NCBI GenBank assembly: GCA_964106915.2
Contig: OZ066919.1
From: Podarcis gaigeae
Lineage: Eukaryota
Strand: one strand, 5' to 3'
Length of the DNA stretch: 64,000 nucleotides
Part shown: in pieces, positions 24,401 to 26,885 of the stretch
How positions within the stretch are numbered: the first letter of the stretch is position 1
How the letters are laid out: each line of letters begins with the position of its first letter
Notes under the pieces: model-generated
The model's database searches: none
Seen by the model: the letters and a program-made list of their open reading frames with translations, nothing else
Told to the model about the DNA's origin: nothing
Translations under genes and position numbers: made by a program

Positions 24401-26885
24401 TTAAACTACAAACACACACACACACACACACACACAGAGAGAGAGAGAGAGAGAGAGAGAGAGAGAGAGAGAGAGAGAAAGAGAGAAAGGAAAAGAGAAA
24501 GAAAGAAATGGATAAATGGGTGACATAAGATTTAAACTTTTTGGGGAAACTAGATGACTAGGGCTTTTGTTTTCTCTAAAATGTTTTACGATATAAAATC
24601 ATTACTCACTTTTCTATCAAGTGACCTATGCTAAATTTCTCATCAGAATAAAACTGCAAAAGACATGAGGTTTCCTTGAATGAAAGTACGGTACAGCCAA
24701 GAACAATGCTTCTACAATGCTATCAATTTTGGCTGCCTCAAAAAATTAAGACCAACTGTCCTAAGATGGCAATGCAAAGCGGAACTGCAAGCCCAACTAG
24801 GCCGGCCCACCTCCACTTACCATCACCCTGCCCACCTTGCTTGGTATTGGCCCATGATTTGGCAACAGGAGGTGCTTCTTGAGGAGCAGGAACTGGAGGC
24901 TTTGGCTGGGTCTGTGGCACTTCTGGCGGTCTGAAACCATAAGAAATGTGAAGAAGCAATCCTGTTAGCACAAATGTTTTAGCAGGGGTTGAAAGAGGAT
25001 GTTACTTATAGAAGACAGAGAATTCAGACTCTTGGATCATTAAATCAAGTGTTTGCCATGGATCTTCCAAAGTGCTCTTGTGGCATATACCAAAACTTTA
25101 TACCACTATGCTTAATGAGAATTTACAGTATGACCTTTAACTTACTTTTCTTCCTCGTGTTGCTCTTGTTTGGAAGCCCATCCTGTGCCATCCTTAGGCA
25201 CAATGTTTATATTAGGATCATTGCCTTTGTTTTCTGCTTTAAGACTGGGGAGATTAGCAGGAGGGGGCATCCTTCGTGAAATGGCAACTTTTCCAAGACT
25301 CTGTAATCCATGGCGTGTTGTGACTGCATCAAGAAAAGACATTTTTAACTGCTGACTGTCACAGAAATGTACAGATTAATCAAAGAAATATGATTCTAAG
25401 TAGAACTTGGAAGATCTGCGAATTCATTGCTCCTAGATCCCAAGTTAGGATTGCTTGGGTATTTATTCTACGTGTACCCTGTCCTTCTATTGAGACAAAT
25501 ATGACTTCCATTGTTTCCATAAAATGGGTGCCTCTCATATCTCAACCAGGATGCTGTTCCACAGGAGAGGATGCATCAATAGAAAAAACAAGGGTACAGG
25601 CCAAAATATAAAAACACAGTATGTAGCAAACAAAGTACAATGAATGTATTCGTCACAATGTACCCGTTATTACAAGGCATACAATACATACAAGCAGTAC
25701 TCCAAAAACATGGAAGTGAATACAGAGTTACAATTAATGATGTATTTTCTTATCTCCAATGCAAAGAAATTATTGAAAGTGATGGAGCAGCTGTAGTAAT
25801 CAGGACTGCAGCCTGGTGATCCCAGTATCAAAGCGAACTGGCTCTAGCCCGTATACAGCAGAAGCTTCAACTTGTACCTGGTGTGGGACTTTGTTAACTT
25901 ACAGGCTGAAGGATTTTTTCTCCACTCGTATTGGAGTACCACTTTGTATGTATCGTATGCCTTGTAATAGCGAGTGCATTGTGATGAATATATTCGTTGT
26001 ACTTTGTTCGTTACATATTGTTTTTATATTTTGGCCTGAATCCTTTTTTTCTATTGGTGCATGCTTTCACACAGTGGGTTCCTTCATTTTGTTCCACAGG
26101 AGAGGGGCAGCCACACTGAAGACCCTGCTCTGAATGACTGTGGAGTGGGGCTTCTGATATTTTAGATGTGATTCCCGCCTTTTAGCTGTAATTCCTGAAT
26201 TGCAGGTGGTTGGATGAGATAACCCTTCGGGTTGCTCCCATCTCTACAATTCTATGGTTCTATTTAAAAAGGTTCAAGCACACTAACAGCCTAATAAAAA
26301 AATAAAATTCAAAATGCACAAAACAATCATAGATGGCAGGCAACAAGTTGAGGATAAAATGCTAGGGAAGTTTGAAACAAGTACATTACTTAGCAGGCAA
26401 AATGCCTGCCAAAAGTGAAATACAGGCTCTTTAGGCTCACAGAAGGCCTAAAGAAAGAATGCAAGATAGGCCTCCCTCAATAGTGTGTTCAACAGTGGTA
26501 AACTAAACACATTATTTAGATTTATTTATTTGTTAAATTCATATCCTGCCTTCCTCCTCAAAGGGCATCCAGGACCCTCCAGAGCAGATCTGGAGGGGAA
26601 GAGACTCAGCAGTCCTTTTGCGCAAGTGGGTGGACATCATTGATATAACTCAAAATGGTAGCCAACTATAAACAGCTTATTAAATTTAGATGAGATACTT
26701 TAATAATGCAAACAAAGCTATCAGCAATGAGTATTTCTCAAACAGTAGCAGCTCATATTACTTTACATACCTGTAGCTTTCTGTGTTTCCAGAGTCTTTC
26801 CTTTATAAGTATTAAACAGACTAAGTGTTGCATACTTGGTTTTTCCATCCTTTGCTTTTGTGTTCTGTCCTGACTTTTCAGACAT
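257..26885 (-). CDS. PRRC2C: PRRC2C (proline-rich coiled-coil 2C / BAT2L2), 5' part of multi-exon CDS, continuing beyond the left edge
   Basis: join(complement) of 26771-26885, 25146-25323, 24821-24930, 18314-18448, 17042-17283, 16581-16660, 15966-16099, 15790-15877, 15424-15538, 13776-13850, 11131-11668, 8814-8980, 7707-7968, 5339-5552, 1754-4129, 257-462 = 5035 nt. All introns between these exons are GT-AG with consistent phases. Protein [30 protein letters not shown]...[22 protein letters not shown] (BAT2_N) ... SQFDLNNYA matches human PRRC2C as recalled. Confidence 0.97.
1754..4129 (-). CDS. PRRC2C: PRRC2C large 2376-nt coding exon (RG-rich, [12 protein letters not shown])
   Basis: Core of the 806-aa ORF; ttttag acceptor, gtaagt donor. 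Confidence 0.97.
5339..5552 (-). CDS. PRRC2C: PRRC2C coding exon ([15 protein letters not shown]...EDPR)
   Basis: ttatag / gtaagc, 214 nt, phase 1 to 2. Confidence 0.92.
5580..5770 (+). mobile_element. Degenerate Sauria SINE fragment
   Basis: ggttcaaatc...gccaacctagcagtttgaaagc...gggaaggtaaatggcgtttccgtgc resembles the copies at 49.3 and 57.0 kb. Confidence 0.7.
6445..6688. mobile_element. Tc1/mariner MITE, family B
   Basis: CAGTGGTA TIRs, TA TSD, internal gcttccaattggctgcaggagc shared with 19806 and 29691. Confidence 0.85.
7707..7968 (-). CDS. PRRC2C: PRRC2C coding exon (EQMKQQQW polyQ ... GFDPRWLMM)
   Basis: ttatag / gtacaa, 262 nt. Confidence 0.94.
8814..8980 (-). CDS. PRRC2C: PRRC2C coding exon (...[15 protein letters not shown])
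   Basis: ggacag / gtaaaa, 167 nt, conserved LPPRFQRQQ motif. Confidence 0.9.
9900..10651. mobile_element. Non-autonomous hAT transposon
   Basis: TIR CAGAGGTTTTCAAC / GTTGAAAACCACTG; 8-bp TSD ATCTAGGC / ATCTAGGT. Confidence 0.88.
10816..11043. mobile_element. Tc1/mariner (Tigger/pogo-like) MITE, family A
   Basis: CAGTGGTACCT TIRs, TA TSD; paralogous to 14852, 31362 and 32350. Confidence 0.88.
11131..11668 (-). CDS. PRRC2C: PRRC2C coding exon (coiled coil, KE-rich)
   Basis: acatag / gtttgt, 538 nt; [31 protein letters not shown]. Confidence 0.93.
13776..13850 (-). CDS. PRRC2C: PRRC2C small coding exon (ERSLPPAQ...KSVQ)
   Basis: caatag / gtatga, 75 nt, phase 0 to 0, positionally equivalent to the human ERGTSS exon. 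Confidence 0.75.
14852..15047. mobile_element. Tc1/mariner MITE, family A
   Basis: CAGTGGTACC TIRs, TA TSD. Confidence 0.88.
15424..15538 (-). CDS. PRRC2C: PRRC2C coding exon (...[12 protein letters not shown])
   Basis: atgcag / gtattt, 115 nt, phase 2 to 0. Confidence 0.8.
15790..15877 (-). CDS. PRRC2C: PRRC2C coding exon ([17 protein letters not shown])
   Basis: ttctag / gtgatt, 88 nt. Confidence 0.9.
15966..16099 (-). CDS. PRRC2C: PRRC2C coding exon ([20 protein letters not shown])
   Basis: ttctag / gtaaga, 134 nt. Confidence 0.93.
16581..16660 (-). CDS. PRRC2C: PRRC2C coding exon ([11 protein letters not shown]...)
   Basis: ccttag / gtaaaa, 80 nt. Confidence 0.88.
17042..17283 (-). 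CDS. PRRC2C: PRRC2C coding exon (VASWREGGG...QYRAMIPPY)
   Basis: ttgcag / gtaagt, 242 nt. Confidence 0.92.
18314..18448 (-). CDS. PRRC2C: PRRC2C coding exon ([14 protein letters not shown]...[10 protein letters not shown])
   Basis: tctcag / gtaagt, 135 nt. Confidence 0.92.
19806..20031. mobile_element. Tc1/mariner MITE, family B
   Basis: TIRs, TA TSD, shared core. Confidence 0.85.
22611..22870 (+). mobile_element. Penelope-like element (PLE) terminal-repeat fragment
   Basis: TATA-like ctatataga at 22751 followed by a minimal hammerhead motif and a ttggtctttaaggtgctactgg end, an arrangement typical of vertebrate PLE pseudo-LTRs; boundaries approximate. Confidence 0.75.
22785..22822 (+). ncRNA. 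Minimal type I hammerhead ribozyme (PLE-type)
   Basis: GTAT-CTGAAGA-A-GTGTGCATGCACAC-GAAA-GCTC-ATAC: stem I GTAT/ATAC, CUGANGA core, stem II, GAAA, palindromic AGCT stem III, predicted cleavage after C22818. Confidence 0.8.
23670..24377 (+). pseudogene. SEL1L: Processed SEL1L pseudogene fragment (5' UTR, signal peptide, fibronectin type-II domain, start of SEL1 repeats), 3'-truncated
   Basis: ATG 23724: [34 protein letters not shown]...[12 protein letters not shown] / frameshift / ...[53 protein letters not shown]...[33 protein letters not shown]. Intronless, with two stops and frameshifts. Confidence 0.93.
24412..24505. repeat. (CA)n(GA)n compound microsatellite
   Basis: Directly visible. 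Confidence 0.95.
24821..24930 (-). CDS. PRRC2C: PRRC2C coding exon ([11 protein letters not shown]...KQGGQGD)
   Basis: tttcag / gtaagt, 110 nt. Confidence 0.92.
25146..25323 (-). CDS. PRRC2C: PRRC2C coding exon ([10 protein letters not shown]...QHEEE)
   Basis: atgcag / gtaagt, 178 nt, BAT2_N domain. Confidence 0.95.
25571..26089. other. Unclassified snap-back insertion: ~135-bp inverted arms around a 225-nt loop, with 16-bp flanking direct repeat
   Basis: Arms 25571-25705 and 25931-26062 are reverse complements (~85% by eye); TGTTCCACAGGAGAGG at 25555-25570 and 26090-26105. Confidence 0.85.
26771..26885 (-). CDS. PRRC2C: PRRC2C first coding exon (MSEKSGQ...)
   Basis: ATG at 26885, donor gtatgt; N-terminus matches PRRC2C. 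Confidence 0.95.

Follow-up and report, generated by a model that had tools for sequence, protein, structure and literature searches.

Intron-removed short copies in two Penelope-like element families of Podarcis gaigeae

Penelope-like elements (PLEs) that carry an endonuclease (EN+ PLEs) have a published layout comprising an inverted copy of the pseudo-long terminal repeat (pseudo-LTR), a tail and a target duplication, together with a C-terminal GIY-YIG endonuclease (PMC3846280, PMC8557442). In Penelope of Drosophila virilis, a short intron lies just below the transcription start site (46 bp) and ends at helix I of a hammerhead; both spliced and unspliced RNAs occur, and genomic copies are described as keeping the intron, for which selection on expression has been suggested (PMC2377424, PMC4209133). 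The significance of intron retention in PLEs has been called unknown (PMC8557442), and whether PLEs are templated by sense or antisense RNA was left open (PMC3846280). Here we analyse an insertion in a window of 64,000 nt of Podarcis gaigeae contig OZ066919.1, the window being the whole stretch studied, whose coordinates are used below; the genome searched comprises 1.51 Gb. The 519-bp insert (25571-26089) had been considered of unknown origin in the original prediction, and it proves to belong to a PLE family, with 89 matches of 68-89% identity at 38 genomic places, the window included. Taken alone, the insertion is ordinary, and its value lies in the splicing rule that holds across its family: copies that reach the open reading frame (ORF) are unspliced, whereas spliced ones arise repeatedly and have a 5’ limit.

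Splicing and copy length in two families

The intron of the insert’s family measures 83-88 nt, has GT-AG borders, and its acceptor abuts the core of a hammerhead motif. The window insert lacks this intron exactly, with the exon-exon junction at 25905|25906 on the plus strand, as established by comparing the loci L006 and L011 with L015 and L027. Among 44 insertions of the family, 15 are spliced, 16 are unspliced and include the donor, two begin inside the intron and 11 fall short of it. The absence of the intron is exact in all 15 spliced copies except L005, which has lost a few more bases. None of 14 spliced copies extends more than 100 nt above the donor, compared with 12 of 15 unspliced copies (p = 1e-5); this table omits L028, whose exon 1 piece is too short, and L041, which was found only with an ORF query. 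The 14 spliced copies start 46-72 nt above the donor, without reaching the ORF, and a TATA-like box stands 27-31 nt above the furthest of their 5’ ends. The intron is kept in every ORF-reaching copy and is gone from the insert and the other short spliced copies; retention is a typical trait of PLEs and not a defining one.

A younger sister family, reached through the endonuclease, provides a replicate; its two introns measure 81 and 122 nt. Copies were sampled with the hammerhead core of this family, a pattern blind to both splicing and length, which returned 32 hits, all of which were read, and none with the control pattern. Nine of the 32 copies (L162-L191, L202-L203) are spliced, 23 are unspliced and none is half-spliced, the two introns being removed together or not at all. 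Every spliced copy that reaches exon 1 (8/8) stops 29-48 nt above donor 1, at a distance of 27-46 nt downstream of a TATA-like box. Each of the 13 unspliced arms with exon 1 sequence extends at least 114 nt above donor 1, 11 of them into the ORF. Past the 5’ limit we therefore count 0/8 spliced versus 13/13 unspliced (p = 5e-6, or 8e-6 when one two-armed insertion is counted once). The position of the intron just below the start site (up to 73 nt here, predicted) and its end at the hammerhead recall D. virilis Penelope; in contrast to the retention described there (PMC2377424, PMC4209133), 15/44 and 9/32 genomic copies are spliced here, all of them short, and the sister family has two introns. 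A report of spliced genomic PLE copies was not found in the literature searched; older PLE papers, Repbase and Dfam may hold such a remark.

Layout and identity of the insert

The insert stands between exact copies of a 16-bp sequence at 25555-25570 and 26090-26105 (both plus strand), as originally stated. This repeat is a true target duplication, because three of five paralogous copies of the interrupted host repeat (L072, L075, L076) hold the site once and read straight through it. The left part of the insert (25571-25852, minus strand) is, by comparison with family copies, an inverted pseudo-LTR copy that runs from the short, tail-less 3’ end of the family to stem II of the hammerhead; it perhaps ends just past the splice junction, its final ~15 nt being ambiguous. 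The forward copy opens with the first exon of the pseudo-LTR (25844-25905, plus strand), starting 63 reference nt above the splice donor, and overlaps the inverted copy by ~9 nt (25844-25852), a possible microhomology join. Beyond the junction it continues with the 5’ half of the family’s putative type I hammerhead motif, whose core is damaged (25906-25924, plus strand; motif inspection, PMC4209133). A join over a ~125-nt gap follows (25925-25931, plus strand), which is also present in the contigs of four of four sequencing runs of other organisms. The forward copy then resumes with the 3’ part of the pseudo-LTR, which forms the right arm (25931-26062, plus strand). The hammerhead assignment at 25906-25924 follows in part the established consensus of this ribozyme; the remaining half lies on the opposite strand, so that neither strand of the insert holds a whole ribozyme. 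The last feature is the PLE tail (26063-26089, plus strand), which lies between two discrete family 3’ ends ~30 nt apart (family comparison; PMC11167929, PMC8557442). On a ruler built from the family copies, the stop codon falls at 332, the donor at 471, the acceptor at 555, the hammerhead cut at 601, the short end at ~836 and the long end at ~866.

The left arm (25571-25705, minus strand), which lies within the inverted copy, aligns with the right arm over 131 columns with 15 substitutions, 14 of them transitions, plus small indels, and the hairpin folds with z = -18.7 relative to 100 shuffles. The arms are only 135 bp long because the forward copy has the 125-nt gap, which approximately coincides with the partnerless part of the inverted copy and starts at most ~25 nt from the end of that copy. 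Both arms derive from one source, since they have in common 13 departures from the family majority. The original description of arms, loop and asymmetry, with a one-sided unpaired tail of 27 nt and no poly(A), is accurate in every point, and its reading of the event as a target-primed retro-insertion with a long duplication, with the fold-back made during insertion, is upheld. A miniature inverted-repeat transposable element (MITE) was considered and rejected, as most family copies have no inverted arm and the duplications are not of a fixed short length; a non-LTR retrozyme was likewise rejected, the hammerhead motif of the insert being split and damaged and the insertion single. The insert resembles Pen2a_Av, in which a 5’-truncated inverted pseudo-LTR, a one-sided tail (30-40 bp), a target duplication and the absence of poly(A) are also found (PMC3846280; scheme in PMC8557442). 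It differs from described EN+ PLEs in having no ORF, in its length of 519 bp, in the missing intron and in the gap of the forward copy (PMC3846280, PMC8557442). It is a real, old and broken PLE end with an already published layout, and this copy is most likely inert.

The assignment to EN+ PLEs comes from the longer copies of the family, which run upstream into frames for the end of a reverse transcriptase (RT), a CxxCxxC three-cysteine linker and a GIY-YIG domain, so that the family is, on its predicted proteins, an EN+ PLE. The GIY-YIG Pfam score within the family is weak (E 0.002, below the curated cut-off). A HMMER search with the endonuclease recovered 576 relatives (best E 8e-22); RVT_1 was present in 6/6 long relatives scanned, 5/6 of which also gave a C-terminal GIY-YIG match. 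Word-indexed protein searches with the endonuclease gave no match, and the RT-end frame (L069) had 0 Pfam matches. Of the RT, only the end survives in this family (L069), and sister-family copies match RT residues 352-741 of relative P0002. The linker motif is seen in L033, with variants in L032 and L034, and corresponds to the CX2-5CxxC linker that precedes the endonuclease in the Neptune clade, where a hammerhead motif also lies in the pseudo-LTR (PMC8557442). By its linker, the family is probably of Neptune type, although the linker is also present in Nematis (PMC8557442).

The pseudo-LTR layout was confirmed by the two 3’ ends ~30 nt apart, and the inverted copies L001, L007, L010, L012 and L018 carry the short end on one side and the tailed end on the other. 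By inspection, the core boxes, stem II and cleavage triplet of the putative hammerhead are conserved in both families. Rfam returned no hammerhead match for the 16 loci submitted, only repeat-derived miRNA-like matches, and minimum-energy folds of short hammerhead stretches did not give the ribozyme fold, which is expected for minimal motifs and was given no weight. Target duplications of ~9-21 bp are clear in 6/30 copies of the insert’s family and in 15/23 sister-family copies checked. Five loci obtained as pattern matches without a family match (L054, L055, L066, L093, L098) were dropped. The tail in both families (26045-26075 in the window) straddles a pyrimidine run ending in AG that resembles a splice acceptor, just before the start of an ORF that is not seen.

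Templating and alternative explanations

We consider it very probable that the insert is the ORF-less, intron-removed end of a Neptune-type PLE, in which the 5’ end of a spliced message was copied twice and the copies joined head to head. The element’s enzyme would cut the target on both strands, and two enzymes would prime from the two cut strands, each copy starting at one of the two start points of the family, before the copies are joined head to head. Two primers on one spliced RNA would explain the tail, the inversion and the shared changes of the insert; the 125-nt gap would fit either a template jump across the stretch copied before or a deletion that the hairpin suffered afterwards. 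A related behaviour has been described in vitro for the Anolis Poseidon element PAc, in which two adjacent RT start sites inside the RNA bound the tail and both DNA strands are cut and extended (PMC11167929); that element belongs to another clade, and the supplements of that paper contain 0 matches to “intron” or “splic”.

We propose that the sharp 5’ limit of the spliced copies corresponds to the transcription start and to a capped 5’ end. Reverse transcription would be initiated internally, where the promoter-proximal pseudo-LTR has its tail, and would run off the 5’ end, leaving short dead copies, and read-through RNA primed at the downstream pseudo-LTR would give long, ORF-bearing, unspliced copies. 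Intron “retention” would then be a question of which RNA end is copied, the cap-proximal pseudo-LTR being spliced and the downstream one unspliced. The donors lie 139 and 167 nt below the stop codon. Nonsense-mediated decay follows a 50-55-nt rule, and the filter that we prefer is this pathway, which would receive any RNA spliced at such a distance (139-167 nt) from its stop; the downstream pseudo-LTR might also be unspliced because an intron that follows a very long exon is spliced poorly, or because the template is nascent or antisense RNA. We assign a probability of about 55% to the whole explanation, namely that spliced sense mRNA is often copied (~1/3 of copies), that priming at the tail captures its cap-proximal end only, and that a decay filter leaves unspliced RNA for the ORF-bearing copies. 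The two families, the exactness of splicing, the predicted start-site bound and the recurrence show that spliced sense RNA serves as a template, and they agree with internal initiation taking place in a living genome. Because spliced copies need sense RNA, antisense templating is not the sole route.

Several observations weigh against this explanation. Three unspliced copies of the insert’s family (L030, L065, L092) are also short, and 10/23 unspliced sister copies end below donor 1. The copy searches give lower bounds that are biased to well-kept copies, a clear target duplication is found in so few copies of the older insert family (6/30), and no full-length copy, with the 5’ pseudo-LTR joined to the ORF, was present among the 10 stretches read. 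The intron and the start site are deduced from genomic comparison and a motif; the in vitro work on internal initiation concerns another PLE clade; and the tree test described below covers the sister family only, with L167, L188 and L163 left out.

The strongest alternative, which we regard as less likely, is that long copies come from antisense or nascent nuclear RNA and short spliced copies from a separate sense route, in which short transcripts from any pseudo-LTR promoter run into the flanks. Antisense templating has been proposed to account for intron retention (PMC3846280), two RNA pools would fit the all-or-none splicing of two introns, and this alternative is compatible with all of our counts. 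However, both classes end at the same two 3’ positions and have duplications and inversions in common, which argues for one priming mechanism on sense RNA; moreover, this alternative would replace only the last step of the explanation preferred above. An improbable one is that the short spliced copies form a non-autonomous, SINE-like or retrozyme-like subfamily descended from one spliced founder and hence uninformative on the autonomous template. They are indeed short, ORF-less and provided with the same two ends, and non-autonomous PLE derivatives have been proposed (bioRxiv 10.64898/2026.07.22.740005). Nevertheless, a tree of the shared downstream part of the sister family rejects a single clade of spliced copies (p-AU 1.3e-7, 8/29 rows spliced), requires 6 changes of the spliced state, 3 of them forced by starred branches, and interleaves spliced with unspliced copies; no unit-length tandem arrays were present among the loci read.

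Two further alternatives concern the insert itself. The original prediction proposed a reverse-transcribed snap-back RNA, such as a defective-interfering or other viral RNA that had possibly undergone A-to-I editing prior to its capture; the strong hairpin, the long perfect duplication and a G-U skew could be cited for it. We find this extremely unlikely, given that all segments of the insert map to the genomic PLE family (no viral database search was made); many copies with shared ends, belonging to a PLE family, are exactly what the prediction had named as evidence to the contrary. Its description of the arm differences as nearly all transitions was correct (14/15), as was the G-U tally of 9 on the plus versus 5 on the minus strand with 1 other, a skew that is not significant (binomial p = 0.42). 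A-to-G changes make up 2/15 on either strand and C-to-T/G-to-A changes 10/15, contrary to editing; with the family as the reference for polarity, the left arm holds 6 of the changes and the right arm 9, and 4 of the 10 C-to-T/G-to-A changes are at sites that are CpG in many copies, so that the arm differences fit ordinary decay. Even at this divergence, the probability that a 16-bp pair is still perfect amounts to 14%. The open frame noted earlier translates as written, but it is not protein-coding: it is the antisense of a non-coding pseudo-LTR, the longest such frame being 78 aa here. Over the same region, other copies have frames of 48-99 aa whose phase is not conserved, and the sole Pfam match of the frame has E 0.067. 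Co-option of the hairpin as a double-stranded element of the host pre-mRNA (ADAR substrate, small-RNA source or splicing modulator) also seems improbable, to nearly the same degree as a single-founder subfamily. The insert does fold on the transcribed strand (-216.7 kcal/mol), a splice acceptor follows it at ~240 nt, and 4/4 related organisms retain it; on the other hand, its arms are 11% diverged, and changes that preserve pairing are not in excess. In one related organism the loop has lost another 17 nt and 11 more letters differ, and with relatives only 1-3% apart such persistence is a sign of age, not of selection.

If the explanation preferred above, with tail priming on spliced sense RNA, is true, PLE templating can be tested from genomes alone, and the spliced copies directly mark where PLE transcripts start and where their introns lie. 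Annotators should be warned that, in such genomes, a hairpin insert with a long duplication is a PLE end and not a viral relic.

Host locus and other element copies

The insert breaks an older multicopy host repeat (25488-26162, minus strand), recognised by its matches to other genomic copies, which translates like the C-terminus of an ORF2, presumably of L2/CR1 type. A coding exon of a PRRC2-family gene (26772-26879, minus strand; PF07001 BAT2_N, E 1.9e-12) lies upstream of the intron that bears the insert, which agrees, at the level of the gene family, with the host gene first named; this gene reads on the minus strand, and its pre-mRNA is therefore the strand opposite to the one folded in the original prediction. 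To the right of the insert, 26165-26265 is another high-copy repeat, with very high contig depth.

The right-hand portion of the insert, which includes the gap, stands beside the same flank in 4/4 runs of other organisms (3 studies; 1-3% apart), and the insert is therefore older than the split of those organisms. No orthologous empty site was seen among these four runs, in which no listed contig crosses the left junction. Two joints bypass the insert, with sides of <30 letters, and probably derive from other copies of the host repeat. None of the runs listed as carrying the insert is an RNA run.

In L1 twin priming, a 5’ inversion arises when the opposite cut strand supplies a second primer, and the 3’ end is not duplicated, in contrast to the present families, in which both primers would start at fixed sites ~30 nt apart. 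Two spliced copies, L004 and L027, have inversion breakpoints that are complementary in the manner of L1 twin priming. At L029:1088-1770, both arms jump on the family ruler from ~732 back to 602, immediately past the predicted hammerhead cut, which could be the footprint of a self-cleaved RNA end in a template jump, at this one locus. At L196:3515-6718, the sister family forms a long and young inverted repeat, in which the RT part is enclosed by two 1.2-kb arms that are 98.8% alike.

Other PLE families are present in the same genome. In L111, L115, L118, L127 and L110, donor-like sites occur ~90-130 nt above an acceptor-like site located at or near the putative hammerhead core. A third, abundant and young PLE family (L192, L193, L194, L199, L201) has copies ~97-99% alike, with open frames of up to 635 aa, and shows a TATA-like box just above the hammerhead with no evident intron; ~50 nt of this family lie inside the pseudo-LTR of L115.

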